Numbered from the stretch's first letter, positions 3 through 10,779 are shown. The stretch: DNA of 10,779 nt from a bacterium (GCA_050125095.1 JASFEA010000107.1:1-10779); one strand, 5' to 3'. The notes: generated by a model from the sequence alone, not told the origin. A program made the numbers and translations.

Positions 3-150
3 ACGGTCGAAGGCGGCACCGGCCCTTATGAGATCCTCATAGTAGAGGACGGCACCTACAGCCTTGAGGCCGTGGCCACGGGTTACGCCAGGTTCGACTC
101 GCTGATAACCGTGGCAGGCGGCGATACCGTTGAAGCCGACATCGTATTGA
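3..150 (+). other. C-terminal part of a carboxypeptidase-regulatory-like/PEGA-type beta-sandwich domain
   Basis: GPYEILIVEDGTYSLEAVATGYARFDSLITVAGGDTVEADIVL fits the G-x-Y..G-x-Y-x-L-x-A-x-x-x-G-Y..V-x-x-G..D-I-x-L pattern of CarboxypepD_reg-like domains. Confidence 0.6.
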
Positions 151-3100
151 CATATACCACGGCCACGAAATACGTATTCGTCGACACATCGGGTGCACGC
201 ATCTTCTCGGAGAGCGTTACCATAAGCATGCCCGACAGCGGCCTCTTCACCTACCAGGACCTCCTCTTCGAGCCCAGGGACGACGACGATATACCCGCCA
301 TCGCCGACACGGCCGCGTACGACAGCATCATCGTGCGCGCCACGCTTCTCGACCCCTCGGTTCCGGTGAGGGGCAACGTGGTATTCGCGGCGGACGACAG
401 CGGCGGGACCGTCATAGACAGCATGATTACAAAAGACATGTTCGAGGGGGGGTACGGGAGGTTCTGGGTGCGCGACGACAGCCTGGAAGTCCTCCGGGTG
501 GAGGTGAGCAAAGGAGATGTCTCGGGATTCGTCGAGCTCCGCGTCAAGGAGCTCGAGCCTTACAGCATCAAGCTAATGCCCGACACGACCACCATTACCG
601 TAGGCGGAGCCGAGAGGATTGAGCTGGGCGTGCAGCTCCTGGATGACGTCGGCAATCCGATTCCAGTCTCTGACGTGGCCATAAGACTGAGGGCCCTGGA
701 AGGGGAGCCGATATTCGCCCCCAGCCTGGGCTATACAGACGGCAACGGCTATTTCATGGCATATGTCTTCGGGTTGAGGGCCGGTGATGTAGTCATAATC
801 GCTGAGACCGCCTCGGAGGACCATCCGGGCCTGATACCTGACACGACGCAGGTTGAGTTCCTTCCCAGGGCGGCGTCGGAGGTGTCGACGGACCTCGAGC
901 CGACGGCCATTGACCTCGGCGAAGAGGGAGAGGTCATATTCCAGGTCACCGACGAGTTCGGAAACGCGGTCGACGCTCCCGGCGTCACCATAGACCTTGA
1001 CACCTATCCGGGGGGCGTTCTCGACTCGCTGGAGACGCCGGTCGTGACTGATGCCGACGGCAAAGCCACCGCCTATCTCAGGGCGGGAGACTCATATGGA
1101 TTCGTGACCATATCCGGGGAGGTGGGCGGAGGGCTCGATTATCCGGTCGAATCGGTGACGCTCATAATTGCGCCCGCGACGCTGGTCTCGGTGGACGAAA
1201 CTGCGCCCGAGACCGACCCCGATCACAACAGCAACATAGATGCCGACATGACCAACATGTACGCATGGGTTGCGGACGACACGCTCAGCGTGACCCTGGA
1301 CTTCCAGACCTCCTGGTCGGACATGCATCTCATGGTCCTGGTCGAGAAGCACCATACCAAGGACGGGGGCGAGAGCGACCCGTTCCAGTTCCAGGTCTTC
1401 TACGGCCACCAGCTCAAACCCGATTTCGTATTCACGGCCAAGTACAGCGCCCGCGACTACGCCGACTTGAGGCAATGGGATGGCGGCGCGCGTGCCTGGG
1501 AGTTCTGGCAGCTCGAGAACGGCAACTGGACTTCGGACGAGAACGATCCCGGCAAGAACGCCATCGGCATGATTGACTTCGGAAGCTCCCGGGTGGTGTT
1601 CAAGTTCCCGCTGGCCGCCATCGGCGCGGTCTCTGTGGGCGATACATTGAGGCTGCAGTCATATGTCACGCAGGAGCCCTTCGGCACCAAGTACAACGCC
1701 CTGGACTCCAATCCCCATGACGCAACCAACGACATGGTGCCCAATGACGGGAGCGGCGAGTGGTGGAAGACGGCGGAGGACCGTGTATACCTGTCAAACT
1801 GGGCCGAGTTCATTGTCCCGGACCTCGGCGACATCGGGAATCCGCCCGGCCTCTCGAACGCCACGATAGATCCCGACAGCACGTACACGGGTGAGACGGT
1901 GACCTTCTCGGTCGACGTAAGGGACTCGGGCGGCGGAATCGGGGACGTGTTCGCCGACCTTTCCGCAATAGGCGGGGAAGAGGTGACCTGGCTCTTCGAC
2001 GACGGAACCAATGGTGACGCGCTCGCGGGCAACGGCACGTATACGACCATGTTCGAAGTCCCGACAAGCGCCGCGCAGGGCATTCATAACATCCACTTCT
2101 TCGCGCGCGACAGCCTGAATATCGCGGCCTCGATGGTGACCGCGCAAATCAAGCTCGTGGCGGAGATAGAGCCCTTCATTGCGGTCGAGGACTCGCTCGG
2201 CGACGACGCCGGCCCAAACCAGACCGACGACGCCGGAAGGCCCATAGACGGGCTCTATTATCTGTATCCAACCAACGGCGTCTTCACCCGGGGCGTGTAC
2301 GACCCCGAACTCGACACCAGAGTCGGCGGCAACTTCGACATAGAGTGGGTCGAGTTCTACATAGACGGTTCGTGGCTGCGAGTCCTGGTGAAGCTGGGGG
2401 AGATCCCCACTTCAAGGTACGTGGGCTGGAACGCGCCCAACCCCGGCGCCAGCTGCACCAACCCCAACAAGGCCGACTTCAACCTTCAGAAGATAGACAT
2501 GTATATCGATTCCGAGGAAAACGTCGGCTCGACCGCCGGCCTCACCAACCGCATGCACGATATCTCCAGGAGCGACGCCTGGGAGTACGCAGTGGCCGTC
2601 GAGGGCTGGTGGAAGGGTCTCATCAAGTCCAACGGTGAGAACGCGACAGCCGCATGGAGCATCAGCAAGCTCGCCCAGGACATGACGTTCTGCACCGACT
2701 ACGTAGAAGAGACGGTGGAGATCAAGATCTCGCTCGAGACGCTCGGGCTCATCGAGGAAGACGAGGAGATGACCGAGGAGGTCATCGACAGGGTCAAGCG
2801 CGAGGTGCTGCAGTGGGACTTCATCATCACATGCGCGGGCCATGACGGCGACAGCAATGACGAGAACCAGGGGCAGGTCCGCTGGGTGAACAAGGGCTCG
2901 GCCGAGTGGCAGTTCGGGGGCGGACGCGACAGCGAGGGCGGCAGGGACAGGGACCCCAATATCATCGATGTTGTAACGGTTCCCGGACTCGGCAAACAGC
3001 CGGGCCGGACCCAGGAGGAGATGCTCAACTACGAAGACCCGGTGGCCGTCAAGCGCTTCGATGAGGGGCTCATGGCCTGCGTTCTCGAGGCCACGTTCTC

Positions 3101-4280
3101 AGAAGACATCTCGCCCCCGACCATCACGCCTTTCAACCGCTACCTGTTCGGGCACGCTCCCTGGCGCGTCATGAAATACAGCCCCGCGGCCTTCTGGACA
3201 ATGATAGAGGACCAGAGCGACATCGAAGAGGTCATCTTCAGGTGGCGGCCGCTCGGCCAGACATACTGGAACGAAGCCGAGATGGGGAACATAGTCGGCA
3301 CCTACTGGGTCGCGGATATCGAGCCGGACACTCTTTTCGCCAACGTTCCGGCGGTCGAGCTCGTAGGCGGTTACGAGGGCCTTCCCTTTGAGGCCGAGAT
3401 CTACGCGCGGGACGAGTTCGGGAACGAGGGCAAGAGCGAGTTCATAACTTTCGGCGTCCTTCAGGAAGCGCTGGCGTCGCAGACCATAGAGAACGTTGAG
3501 CCCGAAGACGTGCTGATCACATACGACGGCACGTTCATCATACTTCCGGACACCACCGTGGCTGACGGCTATGACGCCTTCGACGTCACCGTGACTCCCA
3601 TGTCGGCCAGCCAGGACCCCATGGTGGACCTCGATAACCTTAAAGACGGCATGACTTACCTGGACGTCGGGAGGCAGATTGCGGTCACCGGCTACAGCCG
3701 CGCCGATACCGCGGATATTATGGAACTCGACAATCCGGTAGTCGTCGCGCTGCACTACCCGAGCTATCTTAAGAACAGGATCTCGGACGACTACATGATC
3801 GGTCTGTTCGGCTTCAACCGCGCAACCGATCGCTGGCTGAGCGTCCCCGGCACGCGCAACGAATGGGGTACGGCGGTTCGCGCCCGGATGAGCAGTATCG
3901 GCGACTTCGGCCTCTTCACCGACACGCGGCTGGGCTACGACACGGGCAAGGGGCTCTCGAGCGTGGCGGTGGAACCCAACCCGTTCTCCCCCAACGGCGA
4001 CGGCCTGTATGAGGAGACGCGTTTCACCTTCTTCGTCTCCAGGGAGACCGACTGGGTGACCATAGAGCTCTATGACGTCAGGGGCGACCTCGTGAGAACC
4101 ATATTCTGGCAGGCCCCGGGAATGGCATTCGGCAGGAATGAAATAGACATAACCTGGGACGGCAAGGACGACCAGGGGAACATAGTGCCGTACGGCATTT
4201 ATGTCGCGAGAGTGGAAGTGCGGTTTAAGGTCGCGCCCAACCTGGAGAGAATCAATATAGCGGTAGTGGTCTTAAAGTAG
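3..4280 (+). CDS. Large secreted multidomain protein, 5'-truncated (1425 aa in window): Ig-like repeats, DOMON-like glucodextranase/amylopullulanase-type domains and a C-terminal FlgD-Ig/T9SS-like sorting domain; probably an alpha-glucan-active surface protein
   Basis: The frame is open from nt 3 (TVEGGTGPYEILIVEDGTYSLEAVATGY...), so GTG 72 is internal and the true start lies upstream. Stop is TAG 4278-4280. Motifs: LLDDVGNP/TDGNG and VTDEFGNAV/TDADGKA (Big_1-like), LFDDGTNGDALAGNGTYT, DSLGDDAGP..YLYPTNGVF..FDI..WNAPN..FNLQKIDMYID (Glucodextran_C-like), PNPFSPNGDG..IELYDVRGDLVRT..WDGKDDQGNIVPYGIY..VVVLK. No catalytic GH domain recognised in the window. Confidence 0.85.
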   Translation, partial: TVEGGTGPYEILIVEDGTYSLEAVATGYARFDSLITVAGGDTVEADIVLTYTTATKYVFVDTSGARIFSESVTISMPDSGLFTYQDLLFEPRDDDDIPAIADTAAYDSIIVRATLLDPSVPVRGNVVFAADDSGGTVIDSMITKDMFEGGYGRFWVRDDSLEVLRVEVSKGDVSGFVELRVKELEPYSIKLMPDTTTITVGGAERIELGVQLLDDVGNPIPVSDVAIRLRALEGEPIFAPSLGYTDGNGYFMAYVFGLRAGDVVIIAETASEDHPGLIPDTTQVEFLPRAASEVSTDLEPTAIDLGEEGEVIFQVTDEFGNAVDAPGVTIDLDTYPGGVLDSLETPVVTDADGKATAYLRAGDSYGFVTISGEVGGGLDYPVESVTLIIAPATLVSVDETAPETDPDHNSNIDADMTNMYAWVADDTLSVTLDFQTSWSDMHLMVLVEKHHTKDGGESDPFQFQVFYGHQLKPDFVFTAKYSARDYADLRQWDGGARAWEFWQLENGNWTSDENDPGKNAIGMIDFGSSRVVFKFPLAAIGAVSVGDTLRLQSYVTQEPFGTKYNALDSNPHDATNDMVPNDGSGEWWKTAEDRVYLSNWAEFIVPDLGDIGNPPGLSNATIDPDSTYTGETVTFSVDVRDSGGGIGDVFADLSAIGGEEVTWLFDDGTNGDALAGNGTYTTMFEVPTSAAQGIHNIHFFARDSLNIAASMVTAQIKLVAEIEPFIAVEDSLGDDAGPNQTDDAGRPIDGLYYLYPTNGVFTRGVYDPELDTRVGGNFDIEWVEFYIDGSWLRVLVKLGEIPTSRYVGWNAPNPGASCTNPNKADFNLQKIDMYIDSEENVGSTAGLTNRMHDISRSDAWEYAVAVEGWWKGLIKSNGENATAAWSISKLAQDMTFCTDYVEETVEIKISLETLGLIEEDEEMTEEVIDRVKREVLQWDFIITCAGHDGDSNDENQGQVRWVNKGSAEWQFGGGRDSEGGRDRDPNIIDVVTVPGLGKQPGRTQEEMLNYEDPVAVKRFDEGLMACVLEATFSEDISPPTITPFNRYLFGHAPWRVMKYSPAAFWTMIEDQSDIEEVIFRWRPLGQTYWNEAEMGNIVGTYWVADIEPDTLFANVPAVELVGGYEGLPFEAEIYARDEFGNEGKSEFITFGVLQEALASQTIENVEPEDVLITYDGTFIILPDTTVADGYDAFDVTVTPMSASQDPMVDLDNLKDGMTYLDVGRQIAVTGYSRADTADIMELDNPVVVALHYPSYLKNRISDDYMIGLFGFNRATDRWLSVPGTRNEWGTAVRARMSSIGDFGLFTDTRLGYDTGKGLSSVAVEPNPFSPNGDGLYEETRFTFFVSRETDWVTIELYDVRGDLVRTIFWQAPGMAFGRNEIDITWDGKDDQGNIVPYGIYVARVEVRFKVAPNLERINIAVVVLK
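561..1170 (+). other. Two tandem bacterial Ig-like (Big_1/invasin-type) domains
   Basis: Two ~100-aa units share the pattern V-x-x-x-D-x-x-GN..TD-x-x-G..G-x-V-x-I: VQLLDDVGNPI..YTDGNG..AGDVVIIA and FQVTDEFGNAV..VTDADGKA..YGFVTISG. Confidence 0.7.
1200..1815 (+). other. Probable DOMON-like beta-sandwich domain (first, divergent copy)
   Basis: DMTNMYAWVADDTLSVTLDF..SDPF..PDFVF..RQWDG..VVFKFPLAAIG..ALDSNPHD resembles the DOMON-like carbohydrate-binding pattern and is Trp-rich. Recognised by eye only. Confidence 0.45.
1842..2160 (+). other. Choice-of-anchor X-like Ig domain
   Basis: DVFADLSAIGG..LFDDGTNGDALAGNGTYT (1992-2045) matches the L-x-DDG-x-x-GD-x-x-A-x-D/N-G-x-Y signature. Confidence 0.6.
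2187..3090 (+). other. Glucodextranase C-terminal/DOMON-like domain (as in GH57 amylopullulanases and GH15 glucodextranase)
   Basis: Ordered motifs D-x-x-GDD-x-GP, Y-x-YPT-x-x-VF, FDI, WNAPN, F-x-LQ-x-IDMYID, AWEYAV-x-VEGW, EWQFGGG, PNIIDV and TQEEML-x-Y. Confidence 0.8.
3966..4277 (+). other. C-terminal FlgD-Ig/T9SS-type sorting domain
   Basis: PNPFSPNGDG, TIELYDVRGDLVRT, ITWDGKDDQGNIVPYGIYVARVEV and terminal AVVVLK. Confidence 0.8.
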
Positions 4281-4283
4281 GAG
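4279..4283 (+). promoter_or_regulatory. Shine-Dalgarno site (AGGAG) for the PorV-like gene
   Basis: AGGAG overlaps the upstream TAG. It lies 6 nt before GTG 4290 and 0 nt before ATG 4284, which favours the GTG start. Confidence 0.6.
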
Positions 4284-4289
4284 ATGATC

Positions 4290-5159
4290 GTGAGAAGAGC
4301 GATAGCGGCTGTGTTGCTGGTGCTTCTGCCGGCAGCCGCGCACGGCGGCTTCCTCGCCATAGAGGAGGGGGCGCGCGCCACGGCGATGGGCGGCGCGTTC
4401 ACGGCCGTCTCCGACGACGCCACCGCCGTGTTCTGGAACCCCGCGGGGCTCGGCCTCATGGATGGATTGAGCCTGACGGGCATGGGAACCCGGCTCTTCT
4501 CGGTGGACGGCCTTTCGGAAAGCGTCGTCTCGCTCACTTACGCGGACTGGAAGAAGACGGGCATAGGGGCGGGCTGGGCGCGCACGGGCGTGGAAGACGT
4601 CTACAATGAAAACACCTTCGTTGTGAGCGCCGGCCGCCAGGTTTTCCGCGACGGGCTCTCGGTGGGAGGTACGTTCCGCATATACCGTCTCGCCGCCCCG
4701 GGATACGAGTACTATAACGACCCCAACTTCTCCGACGGGGCGCAGGATTATGCCGTGGACCTGGGCGTGCTTTACAGGGCGCGCACCTGGTCGGCGGGCC
4801 TGACTCTCCGCAACCTCGGCCAGCCCGAGATGAGTCTCATAAGCACAACCGAGGAGAAGGACCCTGTATCCTCAGAGGTGCGCGTGGGCGGGTCTTACAT
4901 TTTCAGGGAAGTCATGTTGATATCGGGCGAGGTCAGGATACCCAATGAAGTGCCAGGCTATTACACGCGCAGCGTCAGGTACGCCCTGGGCACCGAAATA
5001 TGGTTCGTCGGCGTCTTCGCCCTGCGTGCGGGAATCAACGACGGCAAGGCGACCGCCGGGCTCGGGCTCAAGATAAACTGGCTGACCATCGACGCGTCGC
5101 TGCTTTCGGTAAGGCGCCCGGGGACCAAGTACAGGCTGTCGCTGTCACTCGACTTCTGA
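4290..5159 (+). CDS. PorV/PorQ/UPF0164-like (FadL-superfamily) outer-membrane beta-barrel protein
   Basis: Signal peptide MRRAIAAVLLVLLPAAAHG, family N-terminal motif GARATAMGGAFTAVSDDATAVFWNPAGL, then AVDLGVLY, LRNLG, ALRAG, and a terminal beta-signal YRLSLSLDF. Alternative start is ATG 4284. Confidence 0.85.
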   Translation: MRRAIAAVLLVLLPAAAHGGFLAIEEGARATAMGGAFTAVSDDATAVFWNPAGLGLMDGLSLTGMGTRLFSVDGLSESVVSLTYADWKKTGIGAGWARTGVEDVYNENTFVVSAGRQVFRDGLSVGGTFRIYRLAAPGYEYYNDPNFSDGAQDYAVDLGVLYRARTWSAGLTLRNLGQPEMSLISTTEEKDPVSSEVRVGGSYIFREVMLISGEVRIPNEVPGYYTRSVRYALGTEIWFVGVFALRAGINDGKATAGLGLKINWLTIDASLLSVRRPGTKYRLSLSLDF

Positions 5160-5168
5160 GGTGGAGGT
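5158..5168 (+). promoter_or_regulatory. Shine-Dalgarno site(s) (GAGGTG/GGAGGT)
   Basis: GAGGTGGAGGT lies directly upstream of GTG 5172. Confidence 0.6.
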
Positions 5169-5171
5169 TAA

Positions 5172-6650
5172 GTGCTGAGAAAAGGTTTGCTTATAGCCCT
5201 CCTGATTCTGGCCGGGTGGAATGCGGCCTGGGCGGTAAACCTCGACGGCTACACCCAGTTCATGTTTACTTTAAACGGCGAGAACAGGAACTGGTATTTC
5301 GAGAATCCCGAGTACTTCTTCGAGCTCAGGTTCAACGCCGCGCCCTTCCCGGGCACCGAGATGTACATCAAGTCGCTGGCGCTTTCCAACAAATGGGACG
5401 GCGCCGTATTCGAGAACTTCCTCTTTCTCAAGGAAGGCCACCTCAAGTACCGCGGCAGCCGCATCGAGACTTACCTTTTCACCGGCCAGGACAGGTTCTG
5501 GCTGAATGAGCCGCTGCTCTACATCGTGGACACCGGCATCGTCAAGGACGACGACTGGGGGCCCAAGGCACAGGGTATCAGGCTCGACCTCTGGGGCTGG
5601 TGGGGATTCACATTCGCAGGATTCTATTCCGACAAAAGCACGGTCTACCCGGCGGTTTACGAGGGGCAGCTCCCCTCGGGCAGCGAGCTTGCCGACGCGG
5701 ACCTTGTGAGCTCCGACGACTACACGGCGTTCAGGATAAGGCGCCCGTTTACAAAGGGCAGGCTCGTGCTGGGGGCCACCTACGCCAAGAAAGTCTACGG
5801 GAGTACCGATATCGACTACGACCAGATGGTCGCGTTTGACTGGGAACTGTCCTTCGCGGAGATCGTCCCCTTCATATCAGATTACGGTCGCGGCATCATC
5901 ATAGCCGAAGGCGGGCGCAACATATCCGGCTACCTGGGCCCCGGCGAGCACCCTTACGGGTGGAAGGCGGAGCTTCGCGACGTGGGTTTCGGCCCCTTGA
6001 ACTTTATAGGGTCGCTGTTCGACTATGACGACAACTTCTATACCTACGGGCTTGCCAGCGGCTGGAACATAGGTCTCAATGACTATCACGGGCATTACGT
6101 TCAGCTGGACTACCGGGTGCCTTACGAAGCCATAAACCTCAAGGCGTGGCGCCTCAGGGAAAAGCCGCACACGCTCACGGTGGAAAAGCAGCCGCGCGAG
6201 GAGTCCGGCGGCGAGGTTTACATTGAGTTCATCCACGGCTTCACGGGCAAGGTGCAGTACAAGAAGCACATCAATAAGGACGGCGTCTGGCCAAACTGGT
6301 TCTTCGAAGTCATCGGGGAGAACAAGCTGGTCAAACTGCGCACGCAGTACCGGATAAGGGACGCCGGAACGGCCTACCAGGTTCGCGCGTTCGCCTTCGA
6401 ACTCAACGCGAACATCACCGAAAAATGGAAAGTATACTCGCGGATCATTCTGGCGGATGAGAAGACCGAGGCCAGGGAGTCGGTGTGGGCGCAGGTGCAG
6501 TACCTGGGCTGGAACAGCGCCGACTTCTTCGTCGAATTCGGAGACGGCGGCCAGAACTTCTCGCTGGCCAATTCCGACGATTTCATAAATCACGGCAGCA
6601 GCGACGTCACAAGGCGCTGGTTCAAGCTGTTTTTGAAACTCTATTACTGA
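5172..6650 (+). CDS. Uncharacterised outer-membrane beta-barrel protein (492 aa), putative glycan porin
   Basis: Sec signal MLRKGLLIALLILAGWNAAWA, very aromatic-rich, many alternating amphipathic strands (GHYVQLDYR, GGEVYIEF, AFAFELNAN, VWAQVQY) and C-terminal FKLFLKLYY. No family recognised; the porin role is inferred from context. Confidence 0.75.
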   Translation: MLRKGLLIALLILAGWNAAWAVNLDGYTQFMFTLNGENRNWYFENPEYFFELRFNAAPFPGTEMYIKSLALSNKWDGAVFENFLFLKEGHLKYRGSRIETYLFTGQDRFWLNEPLLYIVDTGIVKDDDWGPKAQGIRLDLWGWWGFTFAGFYSDKSTVYPAVYEGQLPSGSELADADLVSSDDYTAFRIRRPFTKGRLVLGATYAKKVYGSTDIDYDQMVAFDWELSFAEIVPFISDYGRGIIIAEGGRNISGYLGPGEHPYGWKAELRDVGFGPLNFIGSLFDYDDNFYTYGLASGWNIGLNDYHGHYVQLDYRVPYEAINLKAWRLREKPHTLTVEKQPREESGGEVYIEFIHGFTGKVQYKKHINKDGVWPNWFFEVIGENKLVKLRTQYRIRDAGTAYQVRAFAFELNANITEKWKVYSRIILADEKTEARESVWAQVQYLGWNSADFFVEFGDGGQNFSLANSDDFINHGSSDVTRRWFKLFLKLYY

Positions 6651-6651
6651 T

Positions 6652-6656
6652 GGAGG
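6652..6656 (+). promoter_or_regulatory. Shine-Dalgarno site (GGAGG) for the CBM48-barrel gene
   Basis: GGAGG lies 8 nt upstream of ATG 6665. Confidence 0.65.
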
Positions 6657-6664
6657 CGAAGGAG

Positions 6665-8788
6665 ATGAAAGCTGGTCTTGCGTTATCAGCTTTGGTTCTC
6701 CTCATCTTCGGTGTTTGCCATGGAGGTGTGGCTAAAGCACCCGATGGGGTTGAATTCACGTACTACGACCCGGCGGCGTTTTCGGTATCGCTCGCCGGCA
6801 ACTTCAACAACTGGGACGTCAACGCGACGCCCATGGTCAAGGACGAAGAGGGGACGTGGAGGGTCGTGGTACAGCTGGAGCCCGGGGATTACGAATACAA
6901 GTACGTCGTGAACGGCGGCGACTGGAAGGTCGACCCCGACAATCCCAACGTGGTGGGGGATTACGGCAATTCGGGCGTCACCGTAAACGAAGAGGGCGAG
7001 CCCGAGCTTGAGAAGCCAAAGGGCGGGATAGAGCTCATCTCCAACACGCCCGTTAACTCGCGCGTGCTTCTGACAGGATGGTACCGGGGCACCTTCGCCG
7101 CCAGGAAGAACGTCCTCGGCGACGTGAGGTGGAGGTTCACGCGCCCGCGCCATGAGATGTACCTGAGCGTCAATCCGACCGTAGGCAAGAACGTCAAGGG
7201 TTCCGGGACGCTTCGCATAGACAGCGGCGTGGGCGATATCCGCGAGATAAGGGCCGACTTCTATTCCGGGTGGCTCGACTTCGAGTCCGAGATGTTCGGA
7301 GTCACAGGCTATTACAATGAAGAGATGATAGCCTACGACAACCCGCTTGAGTCGGTCGGCAACATCGATCTCGGCGGTACATGGCAGAAGGACGACATCA
7401 AATACGGGCGCGGCAACCAGGGCGTAATACTCGACCTCCGGCTGGGCCCGACGGACAGCCGTTTCCTCTACGCCAACACGTATGAAAAGGACATTTACAA
7501 CAATCCGGTGAGATGGGTTTACAACTCCGGGACAGAGGACTACGACTCTTACTTCCGTTACGACAACACCGGCACCGATCTCCTCGGCCTGAGGACCGGG
7601 TTCGGCGTGGCCGGGGCGGACGTGGGCGTGACCTTCACTTCCGAGAGGAACGGATGGTGGGTGGGCTTTGAGGAGGAGAACGTGCTCGACCCCTACCTCG
7701 AGGACTACCGGGACAGGACGGGCGATGAAGGGAGCACCTGGTTCGAGGCGGCAACGTCACGGTGGCAGCTGGGCGCCGACGTAAGGTACGACCACGGAAA
7801 TTGGCTTTCGGTATTCGGCGAATTCGCCGGAGACTCCTACTGGAACGGGTGGGACGCAGCCAACCGGGTGCGCAAGCAGGGCGACCAGCTCGTCGACGGG
7901 GCCATTGAAGTCAAGATCGGCGAGGAAGACGGCTACCGGTTCAAGGCCGGCCTGGACGCCGACAAACAGACTTACGGCTTCAGGGCGTCCTATGAGCTGG
8001 CCGACTTCAGCGGCATGGAGGCCGAGAACCTCTACATGACCGCCGAGCAGATTCCCTTCGAGGACATCGACTCGAGGCTGTGGCCCTATTACGGGCCGCC
8101 GCTGCTGGAGGAGTCGACATACGTGCGCACGTACGTGAAGGTGAACGGTGTTGACGAGTTCTACATCTACCAGCACAATCCCCTTCCCGAGAGGCATGCC
8201 GGCCTCGGCGAGTTCGACCTCTGGTTCAAGAACCGGGGGCTCGACTTCGGCCTCGAGTTCGATATACGCGGATCCGAATGGACCGACCCCGTGAGCGAGA
8301 CAAAGACCAGCAACACCTGGCTCAGGATCGTCCCTTATGTCAGGGGCGACCTCTTCGGCGAGAGGATGGACTATGATCTCGCCTATGTGAGCACCGGTAA
8401 CAACCTGCACGGCCGGATGCCGTCGGAGTTCGACCTCGGGGAGCTGATCCTGAAGGGCGACGTGGGTATTAACAAGAACTGGTCGGTTTATTATAATCTC
8501 AGGTGGGCGGATTATGACTGGACGGAGGGCGGCCGCGATATGAGCGAGAGCTTCATCAATCCGCATGTGGCCCTGGTCTGGAGCCCCATGCCCAAGGTCG
8601 AGATAAGGTTCGGCTGGGGCGTCAATCCGCTCTACTATATCGACACTCCGGCCGAGGGCCGGGAGATCGGCCGCGAGAGGTGGAGGACAAGTTACATGTG
8701 GGTGAACCCGCATGACTCCCTCATAACGGCCGAGAAGGAAATGGAGAATATCAAGGTTGTGTCGCTCATGGGAGTGATAGCCTTTTAG
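6665..8788 (+). CDS. Secreted protein (707 aa) with an N-terminal CBM48/AMPK1_CBM glycogen-binding domain fused to a predicted outer-membrane beta-barrel
   Basis: Start reassigned from 6485 to ATG 6665 (GGAGG at 8 nt, signal peptide MKAGLALSALVLLIFGVCHG); ATG 6650 is an alternative. CBM48 at ~6743-6985: VEFTY..VSLAGNFNNW..PMVKDEEGTW..LEPGDYEYKYVVNG..WKVDPDNP. The remainder has amphipathic strands (WQLGADVRY, YRFKAGLD, FGLEFDIR, VEIRFGWG) and ends in SLMGVIAF. Confidence 0.82.
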   Translation: MKAGLALSALVLLIFGVCHGGVAKAPDGVEFTYYDPAAFSVSLAGNFNNWDVNATPMVKDEEGTWRVVVQLEPGDYEYKYVVNGGDWKVDPDNPNVVGDYGNSGVTVNEEGEPELEKPKGGIELISNTPVNSRVLLTGWYRGTFAARKNVLGDVRWRFTRPRHEMYLSVNPTVGKNVKGSGTLRIDSGVGDIREIRADFYSGWLDFESEMFGVTGYYNEEMIAYDNPLESVGNIDLGGTWQKDDIKYGRGNQGVILDLRLGPTDSRFLYANTYEKDIYNNPVRWVYNSGTEDYDSYFRYDNTGTDLLGLRTGFGVAGADVGVTFTSERNGWWVGFEEENVLDPYLEDYRDRTGDEGSTWFEAATSRWQLGADVRYDHGNWLSVFGEFAGDSYWNGWDAANRVRKQGDQLVDGAIEVKIGEEDGYRFKAGLDADKQTYGFRASYELADFSGMEAENLYMTAEQIPFEDIDSRLWPYYGPPLLEESTYVRTYVKVNGVDEFYIYQHNPLPERHAGLGEFDLWFKNRGLDFGLEFDIRGSEWTDPVSETKTSNTWLRIVPYVRGDLFGERMDYDLAYVSTGNNLHGRMPSEFDLGELILKGDVGINKNWSVYYNLRWADYDWTEGGRDMSESFINPHVALVWSPMPKVEIRFGWGVNPLYYIDTPAEGREIGRERWRTSYMWVNPHDSLITAEKEMENIKVVSLMGVIAF

Positions 8789-8793
8789 GGGGT
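8787..8793 (+). promoter_or_regulatory. Shine-Dalgarno-like site (AGGGGGT) for the lipoprotein gene
   Basis: Lies 7 nt upstream of ATG 8801. Confidence 0.5.
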
Positions 8794-8800
8794 TCGCCGA

Positions 8801-9886
8801 ATGAGGATGCGACTCAAGGTGCTGATTGCGCTTTCGGCTGTTGTCATGCTTGCGCTCGGCTGCACTTCGGCCCGCAGAATCGTGCGAGACAGGCTGCCTC
8901 CCCCGCATGAGGTCGAAGGCGGCATACTGTTCAGCTATTCGGCGCCGGCGGCCCGGATGGTGACTCTGGCGGGCCAGTTCAATAACTGGGCCGGCACGCA
9001 GGGCGGAGGCCGGTACGACCCGACCATCGACCCGATGAGCGACGAGGACGGGGACGGCATCTGGACCATCGTCAAGCCTCTGCCGCCCGGAAGATACCAG
9101 TACAAGTTCGTTATCGACAACGGCGCCGTCTGGGAGCTCGATCCAAGTAACGCCCTCACCGGCGAGGAGGGCGGCTTCACCAACTCGCTGCTTATCGTCC
9201 CCGATGACATAGCTTACACGCCCAGTGTCGTGACGGGCATGGAGCTGCCCGGCACGCTCGACAGGGGCGCCAAGAAGCCCGCCAAACAGGAAGTCACGCT
9301 GGAGCTGGACCGGCCGGACGCCGAGAAGGTCCACGTGGCCGGTCAGTTTAACGAATGGAAGGCCGACGATATAGAGCTCAAGAAGGGCGCGGACGGCATA
9401 TGGCGGACGACGCTCACTCTTGAACCGGGAACCTATACGTACAAGTTCATAGTCAACGGCCAGGACTGGATCGAAGACCCGGCCAATCCCGACAAGGTGC
9501 CCGACCCCTACGGCGGTCACAATTCCCTGCTAACGGTGGGAGCGGGCACTTCCGCCGTCGAGCCCAAAAAGAAAGAGAAGCCCCCGGCCGCCGAGAAACC
9601 CGCTCAAGAGGCCAGAGTGTATCCCGCCGGGGAAGTCGTCATTGAGCTCGACCGGCCCGACGCCGATTTCGTGCACGTTGCCGGGGAGTTCAACGACTGG
9701 AAGCCCGACGACATCGCGCTTACGAAGGGCGACGACGGCATATGGAGAACCACGCTCGACCTCGAGGCCGGAAGGTACGAATACAAATTCATAGTCAACG
9801 GCCAGGACTGGATCGAAGACCCGGCCAATCCCGACAAGGTGCCCGACCCCTACGGCGGAAACAACTCAGTACTGACCGTGGAGTAG
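8801..9886 (+). CDS. Lipoprotein with three CBM48/AMPK-beta-type glycogen-binding domains (non-catalytic)
   Basis: Basic N-region, hydrophobic core and lipobox LALG-C (Cys21, nt 8861). Three copies of AG-x-FN-x-W..G-IW..L-x-x-G-x-Y-x-YKF-x-x-x-G..W-x-x-DP-x-N at ~8918-9198, 9290-9538 and 9632-9880, joined by Lys/Pro/Glu-rich linkers. Confidence 0.88.
   Translation: MRMRLKVLIALSAVVMLALGCTSARRIVRDRLPPPHEVEGGILFSYSAPAARMVTLAGQFNNWAGTQGGGRYDPTIDPMSDEDGDGIWTIVKPLPPGRYQYKFVIDNGAVWELDPSNALTGEEGGFTNSLLIVPDDIAYTPSVVTGMELPGTLDRGAKKPAKQEVTLELDRPDAEKVHVAGQFNEWKADDIELKKGADGIWRTTLTLEPGTYTYKFIVNGQDWIEDPANPDKVPDPYGGHNSLLTVGAGTSAVEPKKKEKPPAAEKPAQEARVYPAGEVVIELDRPDADFVHVAGEFNDWKPDDIALTKGDDGIWRTTLDLEAGRYEYKFIVNGQDWIEDPANPDKVPDPYGGNNSVLTVE
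9290..9880 (+). repeat. Intragenic direct duplication (two ~249-nt CBM48 units, offset 342 nt) containing an exact 71-nt repeat
   Basis: 9290-9538 aligns without gaps to 9632-9880. 9446-9516 is identical to 9788-9858 (ttcatagtcaacggccagg...gacccctacggcgg). Confidence 0.95.
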
Positions 9887-9893
9887 GTGGGGG

Positions 9894-10779
9894 ATGAAGG
9901 CTTCCCTCAAAGGCAACCTGACGACGGCAGCCTTCCTCGCGCCGTTCCTTTTCATTTTCGCCTTGTTCCTGACGTATCCCCTGTTCTATTCCTTTTACCT
10001 CAGCCTCAACAAGGTAACCACGCTGGTCAACGTGTTCGAGAACCTGAAGTTCGTGGGCCTCGACAATTTCATAAAGCTCTTCCATGACAAGCTCTTCTGG
10101 TGGTCGCTTCTCATGACTCTCTACTACGCCGCCCTGGCGGTGCCCCTGGGGATCGCGAGCGCGCTGCTGCTTGCCGTGCTCATCAACAACAAGCTCAAAC
10201 TCAACAGGCTGTTCCGCACGGCTTTCTTTCTCCCCTATGTGCTGGACCTCTTCGTCGTCAGCGTCGTATGGACGTTCATCTACAGCCCTCACTTCGGCAT
10301 ATTGAACAGGATATTCGAGAGCGTCGGTATTCACTATTTCGCCGAGCAGGGATTCCTGGGCCGGCCGGAGACGGCGATGCCGGCGGTGGTCCTGGTAAAC
10401 GTGCTTAAGGGAGCGGGCTTCGGCATGCTGCTCTACCTGGCGGCGCTTCAGAACATACCGGTTGAGGTCTACGAGGCGGCGGACATCGACGGCGCGGGCT
10501 GGTGGCGTAAACTCCGCAGCATCACGATGCCGCTTCTCAAGCCCGTTACGCTTTTCATGATAATCGTCGGAGTCACGGCGGCGCTCAATGCATTCGTCGA
10601 GGTCTACGCGATGACCAGCGGCGGTCCGAGCGTCAATGTGGGGGAGCAGGCATACGGTGCGACATGGGTGACGGGCTACTACCTGTTCGACACCTTCTAC
10701 GTGAAGCTCAAGCTCGGATATGCGGCGGCGATGTCGTACGTGCTGCTCTTCCTGGCCGTCACGATCTCGCTCATAAACT
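9894..10779 (+). CDS. Carbohydrate ABC transporter permease, CUT1 family (MalF/UgpA/LacF-type), 3'-truncated
   Basis: Absent from the supplied track because it has no stop in the window. Manual translation from ATG 9894 (AGGTGG upstream): MKASLKGNLTTAAFLAPFLFIFALFLTYPLFYSFYLSL..KFVGLDNFIKLFHD..FRTAFFLPYV..GILN..LYLAALQNIPVEVYEAADIDGAGWWRKLRSITMPLLKP..MTSGGP..LGYAAAMS. It has a clear EAA motif and several transmembrane helices. Confidence 0.95.
   Translation, partial: MKASLKGNLTTAAFLAPFLFIFALFLTYPLFYSFYLSLNKVTTLVNVFENLKFVGLDNFIKLFHDKLFWWSLLMTLYYAALAVPLGIASALLLAVLINNKLKLNRLFRTAFFLPYVLDLFVVSVVWTFIYSPHFGILNRIFESVGIHYFAEQGFLGRPETAMPAVVLVNVLKGAGFGMLLYLAALQNIPVEVYEAADIDGAGWWRKLRSITMPLLKPVTLFMIIVGVTAALNAFVEVYAMTSGGPSVNVGEQAYGATWVTGYYLFDTFYVKLKLGYAAAMSYVLLFLAVTISLIN

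Follow-up and report, generated by a model that had tools for sequence, protein, structure and literature searches.

Introduction

Most of what is understood about how glycans cross the bacterial outer membrane comes from TonB-dependent systems of the SusCD type and from porins of the LamB type. Here we analyse a 10,779-nt stretch of DNA from a Candidatus Eisenbacteria-like diderm (GCA_050125095.1 JASFEA010000107.1:1-10779), which we call the window, meaning always this whole stretch. It carries six tightly spaced open reading frames (ORFs) on the + strand, named g1 to g6 (Table 1), and it very probably represents the front part of a locus for the utilization of an alpha-glucan (starch, glycogen or pullulan). 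The overall explanation towards which we lean is that this locus includes an uncharacterized outer-membrane module, for which we propose an import mechanism. A previous interpretation made without database searches (hereafter the sequence-only reading) had described the window as a candidate glucan capture and import system of a kind that it knew from no characterized example, and we likewise found no description of this layout in the open-access literature searched. The computational checks that it had suggested turned out favourable to it, and overall we regard its interpretation as supported in part.

Three described systems are close enough to serve as references. In Bacteroides, alpha-glucans are captured by the products of the SusCDEFG locus, of which SusE and SusF are non-catalytic starch-binding lipoproteins made of tandem domains that resemble carbohydrate-binding modules (CBMs). 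The maltodextrin system of Escherichia coli comprises LamB, a barrel of 18 strands, the MalE/MalFGK2 importer and the periplasmic enzyme MalS; passage through the barrel is TonB-independent, and binding in the periplasm gives the process its direction. In the secretion system of type IX (T9SS), surface proteins are attached in the pairs PorU-PorV and PorZ-PorQ, and cargo genes can be paired with genes for cognate barrels, as in the SprB-SprF type.

Like Sus, the locus would be a co-localized set of genes for alpha-glucan capture at the surface of a diderm of the Fibrobacterota-Chlorobiota-Bacteroidota (FCB) group, with secreted amylolytic enzymes and a step at an outer-membrane barrel, and its tandem CBM lipoprotein g5 is comparable to SusE and SusF. 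Unlike Sus, the window has no SusC (no Plug, no TonB box and no match to PF00593) and no SusD. Its barrels are plugless and belong to no named family, uptake across the inner membrane would use an ATP-binding cassette (ABC) importer with a solute-binding lipoprotein, and the cassette includes a large C-terminal-domain protein with a cognate PorV/PorQ-like barrel.

The likeness to the E. coli system, which as regards function we infer here, lies in TonB-independent passage through a barrel and in a CUT1-type importer, with g6 nearest to UgpA and MalF and with MalG-like, solute-binding-protein and MalK genes in related loci. Differences are that LamB is unmatched, that the strands of each barrel number about 24 and not 18, that CBM48 domains are fused to the barrels or encoded beside them, that a large surface protein is present, and that an enzyme of glycoside hydrolase family 57 (GH57) stands in place of the MalS-type GH13_19.

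As in the T9SS pairs, the tail of g1 is nearest to the C-terminal domains that PorU and PorZ retain, g2 is nearest to PorV and PorQ, and the barrel gene g2 directly follows the presumed cargo gene in 38/38 loci. Unlike the members of those pairs, g2 is short (291 aa) and falls under its family cut-off, and g1 fails both the type A and the type B sorting-domain models. Taken together, these comparisons suggest a locus that resembles Sus and LamB/Mal in function, with barrels that by profile searches fail membership of the SusC/TonB-dependent receptors, LamB, the ushers and DUF6029.

Results

A conserved cassette linked to glucan catabolism

We scanned one genome per species with a g4 profile, kept 75 loci and mapped the six window proteins onto their ORFs; a g4-type barrel is present in 47/75. 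Neighbours were counted among these 47, using the loci with enough flank to judge. The g3 gene lies directly upstream of g4 in 44/45 loci, the sole miss being a fragmented ORF at a contig end, and g5 lies directly downstream of g4 in 44/44. Upstream of g3, g2 is found in every assessable locus (38/38), and g1 precedes g2 in 30/35. In the five loci without a g1 match, the ORF that abuts g2 keeps the same C-terminal-domain motif, which was present in 7/7 such loci inspected.

Gene-neighbourhood analysis, which the sequence-only reading had named as a check, thus revealed conserved synteny: the g1-g5 cassette is kept in order across several FCB-type phyla. The locus records give the names Eiseniibacteriota, Fibrobacterota, Zixiibacteriota, Krumholzibacteriota and Gemmatimonadota. 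None of these loci is known to come from a cultured host. Homologues of g3 and g4 are mostly unnamed metagenome proteins; the organism-named ones come mostly from Candidatus Eisenbacteria/Eiseniibacteriota, and the rest are labelled 'bacterium'. More divergent loci, which are WOR-3-like and lie under the g4-barrel threshold, have a reduced arrangement. In WOR-3-named records, g4-g5 are kept with g3 ahead of them in 3/4 (L034 has no g3), and g1 and g2 were not found. In one of these loci, L046:6753-8508 holds, in the place of g1 and g2, genes for a PD40 (TolB-like beta-propeller) lipoprotein and for a protein of 253 aa that starts with a signal-like segment and has F as its last residue.

The cassette is linked to genes for secreted GH57 and GH13 enzymes, for a debranching enzyme and for a CUT1-type ABC importer. 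In three of the closer loci (L002, L007 and L066; the g4 proteins of the first two are only 37-51% identical to that of the window), the genes after g6 encode another permease, a solute-binding protein (SBP_bac_1) and a GH57 enzyme of 817-1146 aa with an N-terminal CBM48. This GH57 protein ends in a Glucodextran_C module in L002 and L066; in L007 the module is on a separate 258-aa ORF just upstream, and this locus additionally encodes GDE_C (amylo-alpha-1,6-glucosidase). More distant loci (L019, L021, L037 and L030) hold GH13 enzymes that carry between three and five CBM48 domains, a GH57 combined with CBM20, a solute-binding protein, two permeases, MalK and GDE_C. Overall, phmmer probes for GH57, GH13 and the glycogen debranching enzyme (GDE) found at least one of them in 27/49 cassette loci, many of the others having short flanks.

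The N-termini of these proteins are signal-like in the GH57 enzymes and in the L019 GH13, and of lipoprotein type in a second L019 GH13. The solute-binding protein has a lipoprotein signal and the debranching enzyme has no signal. Of the flanking genes that the sequence-only reading had expected, the MalG-type second permease, the solute-binding protein and GH57 or GH13 (here with CBM48) were recovered in relatives, together with MalK and GDE_C; the LacI-type regulator that it had also expected was not seen. It had further raised the possibility that an adjacent SusC/D pair accounts for uptake, and neither SusC, SusD nor LamB was seen among 56 flank ORFs scanned in eight related loci.

Two other features of these flanks were noted. 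Behind the GH57 gene of L002 is a 706-aa protein (L002:19281-21398) with a hydrophobic N-terminal region and no Pfam match, at the position where L007 has GDE_C. Upstream of g1 (L002:621-2197 and L007:226-1984) are genes for a 4Fe-4S (Fer4_5) protein and a SIR2-family deacetylase, which have no obvious link to glucans.

Two predicted barrels outside the named families

The g3 protein has no match in Pfam or NCBIfam, and the barrel part of g4 (about 600 residues after the CBM48) is likewise unmatched. Both are real genes, because database searches at E<=1e-3 returned 99 homologues of g3 and 61 of g4. The g3 family is small, with 174 cluster representatives at E<=1e-3 among 1.84 billion, and a homologue search with a wider g3 profile returned only unnamed or 'hypothetical' proteins. 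A precomputed Pfam label, PF27098.1, is attached to one homologue of g3 (P0015) and is missing from the Pfam copy used; some of the g3 family may already fall under a very recent Pfam entry. Another relative of g3 (P0195, 698 aa) has an N-terminal CsgG-like segment with a whole-protein E of 1.9e-7 and no separate stretch that passes; this protein would be a fusion of a secretion-channel lipoprotein domain with a g3-type barrel.

AlphaFold2 models were built on alignments of 46 (g3) and 37 (g4) homologues. Both give large beta-barrels, in agreement with the two unfamiliar barrels seen by the sequence-only reading. The g3 model (predicted local distance difference test, pLDDT, 82.3; predicted TM-score, pTM, 0.74) has 24 strands in its DSSP list and appears plugless, because the first strand is already present at residue 22. 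In the g4 model (pLDDT 85.3, pTM 0.74), a low-confidence linker joins the CBM48 to a barrel of similar or larger size. Profile alignment of g3 with g4 by hhalign (probability 94.4%, E 8.7e-8) extends over 194 columns that cover the first ~200 residues, and on this basis we consider the two barrels to be distant paralogues. The same alignment reveals a non-strand segment with the pattern E-P-L ... D-D..G...Q-G, conserved in both barrels between early strands (Table 1), which may be a lumen or constriction loop.

Comparison with known structures yielded no close relative. Foldseek searches of the PDB with g3 found the ushers PapC and FimD and TonB-dependent receptors (query-normalized TM-score, TMq, <=0.54; 6-10% identity), and those with g4 found TonB-dependent receptors and the Mtr complex (TMq<=0.41). 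Against TonB-dependent receptors, TMq reaches at most 0.49 with g3 and 0.41 with g4. When profiles were searched against PDB sequences, g3 gave a single match at E 0.11, which we take as noise, and g4 gave matches through its CBM48 only.

Four known identities were considered for these barrels and rejected. They are not TonB-dependent receptors of the SusC kind, since they are plugless and have no Plug (PF07715) or TonB_dep_Rec (PF00593) match at E<=0.01; one of the 61 g4 homologues (P0154) does bear a precomputed PF00593 label. A LamB maltoporin is excluded by the lack of any Pfam or NCBIfam match and by the approximately 24 strands in the models versus 18. Hence neither of the two classes to which the sequence-only reading had thought the barrels might yet be traced accounts for them, the best PDB TM-score to any structure being 0.54. 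An usher of the chaperone-usher kind was set aside since no usher or chaperone family is matched and the fold resemblance reaches just the value given above.

The fourth candidate, DUF6029 (PF19494), is an uncharacterized barrel family. Judged by language-model features, no other named family looks more like the two barrels: in a protein-language-model atlas, g3 and g4 are placed beside DUF6029 clusters (scores 0.96 and 0.94). This is resemblance at the level of the language model only, as the DUF6029 hidden Markov model (HMM) misses g3 and its relatives (matches to 0/15 and 0/29 family members). DUF6029 proteins are proposed to conduct polysaccharides outwards, as secretion barrels, on the grounds of similarity to Wzi-type barrels near genes for outer-membrane polysaccharide export (OPX) proteins (PMC9603273). 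The role proposed for DUF6029 is therefore one of export.

Candidate glucan-binding modules in g4 and g5

All four CBM48-like domains of the sequence-only reading were recovered by Pfam, one in g4 and three in g5. The CBM_48 model scores 49.5 bits with g4 and 98.1 bits with g5 (cut-off 22.4), and AMPK1_CBM scores 113.7 bits with g5 over three stretches. When aligned to the CBM of AMPK beta2, g5 retains the FNxW and YKF motifs and the subsequent Trp. The FNNW, YKF and W motifs aligned here presumably correspond to W100, K126 and W133 of AMPK beta1. In AMPK beta1, mutation of these three residues abolishes or weakens glycogen binding (PMC6274970). Conservation at the equivalent positions is strict: W50, K79, W87 and N102 are invariant in 37 g4 homologues, as are W63, K102, W111 and N128 of the first CBM48 in 35 g5 homologues. 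The g4 and g5 modules can thus be assigned by sequence to the CBM48/AMPK-type glycogen-binding class, with the Trp/Lys/Trp positions retained, and they are predicted binders.

The g5 protein is a predicted lipoprotein, as first proposed, with a signal peptide that ends in Cys21 after a hydrophobic stretch; a Cys is found at or adjoining that position in most of the 35 aligned homologues. Directly behind the Cys is a basic, proline-rich motif, R-x-R-[LV]-P-P-P-H, in which R31 and P35 are invariant (n=35). The surface-export signal of Bacteroidota is acidic, and the basic motif of g5 is unlike it. This motif could be a docking or sorting signal.

The number of CBM48 copies in g5 varies from one to three among homologues, with two in most close relatives and one in distant ones. 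The window's copies 2 and 3 form a tandem duplication, with 80% DNA identity over 251 nt at a spacing of 342 nt. What is conserved in relatives is a core of the Cys, the R-x-R-[LV]-P-P-P motif and one CBM48, the additional copies being lineage-specific. Some g4 homologues are longer (749-903 aa) and score much higher against g5. A complex prediction with residues 22-707 of g4 and the first CBM48 of g5 (residues 22-140) gave a score of 0.00 and a mark of 0.32, and we count it for neither side.

A putative surface protein and its presumptive cognate barrel

The window holds g1 without its 5' end. Complete homologues (n=18 aligned) range from 1038 to 2295 aa, and their consensus opens with a signal-like hydrophobic stretch. 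Pfam recognizes Ig-like Big_1/Invasin_D3 repeats, a Glucodextran_C module and a C-terminal FlgD_ig domain. The module, which the sequence-only reading had called glucodextranase-type, is the best-conserved region of g1 (invariant alignment columns are densest at aa 730-1041), and it recurs on the neighbouring GH57 enzymes of relatives. A 23-sequence g1 profile searched against the PDB matched domain C of the Arthrobacter glucodextranase 1ug9 (7.4e-18), and also FlgD, Ig domains of the intimin type and transthyretin-like repeats of the NOMO type. Neither Pfam, phmmer nor this profile against the PDB revealed a catalytic domain in g1. Therefore, of the earlier proposal that the surface protein binds or processes glucan, we drop 'processes' and keep 'binds' as our reading.

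The C-terminus of g1 has the C-terminal part of PorU as its top NCBIfam match (31.7 bits with the isolated tail). Among five g1 tails tested, four match the PorU C-terminal region, with PorZ ranking first for one of these (L021); the fifth (L037) gives only a sub-threshold match to the type B sorting domain (19.9 bits vs 35). No g1 match was obtained with the type A models (TIGR04183/PF18962), and the type B model (TIGR04131) fails as well, the L037 tail being its sole hit. By these models, g1 would lie outside canonical type A or type B T9SS cargo. The description of g1 as T9SS-like cargo thus holds for the resemblance of its C-terminal domain to PorU and PorZ and does not extend to the type A sorting signal.

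The g2 protein matches the NCBIfam PorV_fam model (NF033709) over its full length (6-326 of 326) with 83.1 bits, where the curated cut-off is 90. Of 16 homologues of g2, every one matches this model and two exceed the cut-off (91.9 and 90.8 bits). Accordingly the PorV-like barrel of the sequence-only reading is retained here as a borderline member, by profile score, of the PorV/PorQ family. In Porphyromonas, PorU and PorZ retain their C-terminal domains and sit on PorV and PorQ. The invariable pairing of a gene for a C-terminal-domain protein with a following g2 gene fits a cognate tether or shuttle, and g2 probably anchors or shuttles g1.

Permease, gene calls and remaining features

The last gene, g6, matches BPD_transp_1 (Pfam, 50.3 bits). 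Its nearest NCBIfam models are UgpA (128 bits) and MalF (78 bits), both under the equivalog cut-offs. Its homologues have about 305-333 aa, and the genes behind theirs encode another permease and a solute-binding lipoprotein. In line with the CUT1 permease recognized earlier, g6 can be assigned by sequence as the first permease of a CUT1-type sugar ABC importer, whose second permease, solute-binding protein and MalK are known from related loci only.

Our ORF calls agree with the sequence-only reading that the six genes are co-oriented. The spacing of 7-14 nt that it gave applies to four of the five gaps (3, 12, 14, 12 and 7 nt from g1 to g6), the exception being the 3 nt between g1 and g2. At each of these gaps a purine-rich stretch precedes the start, and GC content across the window is 0.56-0.62. 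The three proteins said to combine a signal peptide with a terminal aromatic residue are g2, g3 and g4, which have signal-like N-termini and end in F, Y and F. Also in agreement, Pfam and NCBIfam scans of the six window proteins gave no match to SusC, SusD, LamB or Plug. The longest ORF for g4 starts at 6485, which lengthens it by 180 nt on the upstream side, where it runs into the end of g3 in a different frame; we place the start at the ATG at 6665 because the resulting product length matches that of the database protein P0100 (707 aa; identity over 99% of the query). Seven long antisense ORFs were scanned with Pfam and 0/7 matched, including one of 587 aa that spans g4 and g5 and is most likely a by-product of 60% GC. 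An Rfam scan of the window gave no matches.

Table 1. Genes and other features of the window, with positions in nt of the window and residues (aa) of the encoded protein
Feature	Position	Strand	Description
g1	3..4280	+	1425 aa seen, 5' open at window edge; large secreted or surface protein
g1 Glucodextran_C module	2250..3038 (aa 750-1012)	+	Pfam, 74.8 bits vs cut-off 22
g1 C-terminal Ig-like domain	4020..4217 (aa 1340-1405)	+	FlgD_ig / PorU C-terminal-domain type; FlgD_ig 27.4 bits vs cut-off 27
g2	4284..5159	+	291 aa; PorV/PorQ-family-like outer-membrane barrel
g3	5172..6650	+	492 aa; predicted plugless beta-barrel, ~24 strands, family-less
g3 conserved non-strand segment	5484-5588 (aa 105-139)		E-P-L ... 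D-D..G...Q-G
g4	6665..8788	+	707 aa; N-terminal CBM48, linker, large predicted plugless beta-barrel
g4 CBM48	about 6734-6970 (about aa 19-107)	+	CBM_48/AMPK1_CBM Pfam match
g4 conserved non-strand segment	aa ~218-253		counterpart of the g3 segment
Antisense ORF	7757-9520	-	587 aa; spans g4 and g5; no Pfam match
g5	8801..9886	+	361 aa; lipoprotein, three CBM48 domains
g5 basic proline-rich motif	8864-8905 (aa 22-35)		R-x-R-[LV]-P-P-P-H, right behind the Cys
g5 CBM48 copy 1	about 8918-9199	+	Pfam
g5 CBM48 copy 2	about 9287-9541	+	Pfam
g5 CBM48 copy 3	about 9635-9880	+	Pfam
g5 tandem duplication	9289-9539, 9631-9881		CBM48 copies 2 and 3
g6	9894..10778	+	295 aa, 3' open, nearly complete; MalF/UgpA-type permease

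Discussion

Proposed mechanism

Gene content, domain make-up, the conserved cassette and its catabolic neighbours are observations; each mechanistic step at the outer membrane is inferred from them. We propose that g1 is a very large, non-catalytic surface protein that would hold the glucan through its glucodextranase-C-type module and its Ig repeats. It would be tethered to the outer membrane by its C-terminal Ig domain, seated on the cognate PorV/PorQ-like barrel g2. The model for this arrangement is the pairing of PorU with PorV and of PorZ with PorQ in type IX secretion. The paralogous plugless barrels g3 and g4 would then offer a TonB-independent passage through the outer membrane for alpha-glucan chains or maltodextrins. 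We give about even chances to the idea that g3 and g4 are the conduit for the glucan.

At the channel, the chain would be bound by the CBM48 of g4 and by g5. These modules might act at the surface, as SusE and SusF do, or in the periplasm, where they could serve as a ratchet that gives direction. The N-terminal domain of a barrel protein is usually periplasmic, and exposure in the manner of an autotransporter is possible. The signal-peptide-bearing GH57 and GH13 enzymes would trim the chain, and the solute-binding lipoprotein with the MalF/MalG/MalK-type importer would carry the resulting oligosaccharides over the inner membrane. A bolder version, which we advance only tentatively and consider doubtful as it stands, is that g3, g4 and g5 constitute a new class of TonB-independent outer-membrane glycan translocon, in which the barrels thread long chains into the periplasm, the CBM48 modules fused to the barrel and carried by a docked lipoprotein act as the ratchet and g2 tethers g1, and which would be an alternative to SusCD in the FCB superphylum.

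Several observations weigh against the import mechanism. The 47 loci all come from metagenome-assembled genomes. The role of channel is read from the shape of the modelled barrels, whose folds have no close match (TMq<=0.54), and the two profile results for the presumed tether are unfavourable, as g1 lacks a type A sorting domain and g2 scores below its cut-off. Moreover, g6 adjoins g5 in only 15/34 assessable loci, all of them closer relatives, that is, those in which g4 is closest to that of the window (best-segment identity 37-78%). Finally, the WOR-3-like loci have g3-g4-g5 without g1 or g2, and GH57, GH13 or GDE was found in 0/8 stretches fetched; in L046 the cassette lies beside trehalose synthesis genes (GT20 and TreT) and not beside glucan hydrolases. 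This hydrolase-free variant is a warning sign, since the substrate of the g3-g5 module may be broader than alpha-glucan or another one.

Alternative explanations

The strongest competing explanation is that the locus encodes a surface scaffold only. In that case g3, g4 and g5 would anchor CBM48 modules that, with g1, hold starch granules or glycogen near the secreted GH57 and GH13 enzymes, and the oligosaccharides would enter by unrelated general porins or by TonB-dependent receptors whose genes lie elsewhere. The number of CBM48 copies varies freely, as judged from g5 and from the longer homologues of g4, which fits an avidity-driven binding role. Transporters encoded elsewhere in the genome are compatible with what the window holds, and the barrels are putative channels. 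However, two conserved, paralogous barrels, each of about 24 strands, would be costly to make as an anchor, and they are tightly coupled to the ABC importer in the closer lineages. The barrels also have many invariant charged and aromatic residues in addition to the conserved non-strand segment, which suggests a functional lumen. We regard a pure scaffold as unlikely.

A second alternative makes g2, g3 and g4 a secretion and attachment machine for g1, akin to an usher or to a T9SS-accessory translocon, with the CBM48-like domains serving as protein-protein modules and the link to starch made only by the adhesin g1. It can draw on the ushers PapC and FimD as the top PDB fold matches of g3, on a weak match of g5 to the NCBIfam model of a T9SS plug (28.6 bits vs a cut-off of 100), and on the PorU/PorZ-like tail of g1 and the PorV/PorQ-like nature of g2. 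However, the usher matches reach TMq<=0.54 at 6-9% identity, and no usher family of Pfam matches g3 or g4. Likewise, the WOR-3-named loci have g4-g5, and mostly g3, with no g1 or g2, and invariant glycogen-binding residues in the CBM48 domains are unexpected for a purely protein-binding module. Its probability appears to us to be low.

Least probable of all is that the barrels are secretion porins for a self-made alpha-glucan, either a capsule or a periplasmic glucan, with GH57 as a branching or remodelling enzyme: the language-model resemblance to DUF6029, the export role proposed for that family and the trehalose synthesis genes in the WOR-3 locus scanned speak for it, but the DUF6029 HMM is unmatched, the scanned cassette flanks contain no glycosyltransferase, OPX or polysaccharide co-polymerase (PCP) gene, bar a Wzx-like gene in L021 that is unrelated and lies on the opposite strand, and import and catabolism are indicated by the solute-binding protein, by MalFG/MalK and by a debranching enzyme of cytoplasmic type.

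Significance

The cassette occurs in at least five mostly uncultured phyla, where it combines outer-membrane proteins of undescribed families with enzymes that degrade starch and with an ABC importer for sugars. If the barrels are indeed the conduit of an alpha-glucan utilization locus, this would be a third design for polysaccharide import, and two unannotated protein families would gain a function. With g1 and g2, nature would offer an example outside Bacteroidota in which a PorV/PorQ-like barrel has just one cognate cargo as its partner. If the explanation that we favour is true, the cassette would also provide a marker set that predicts the use of starch or glycogen in genomes of Eisenbacteria, Zixibacteria, Krumholzibacteriota, Fibrobacterota and Gemmatimonadota.

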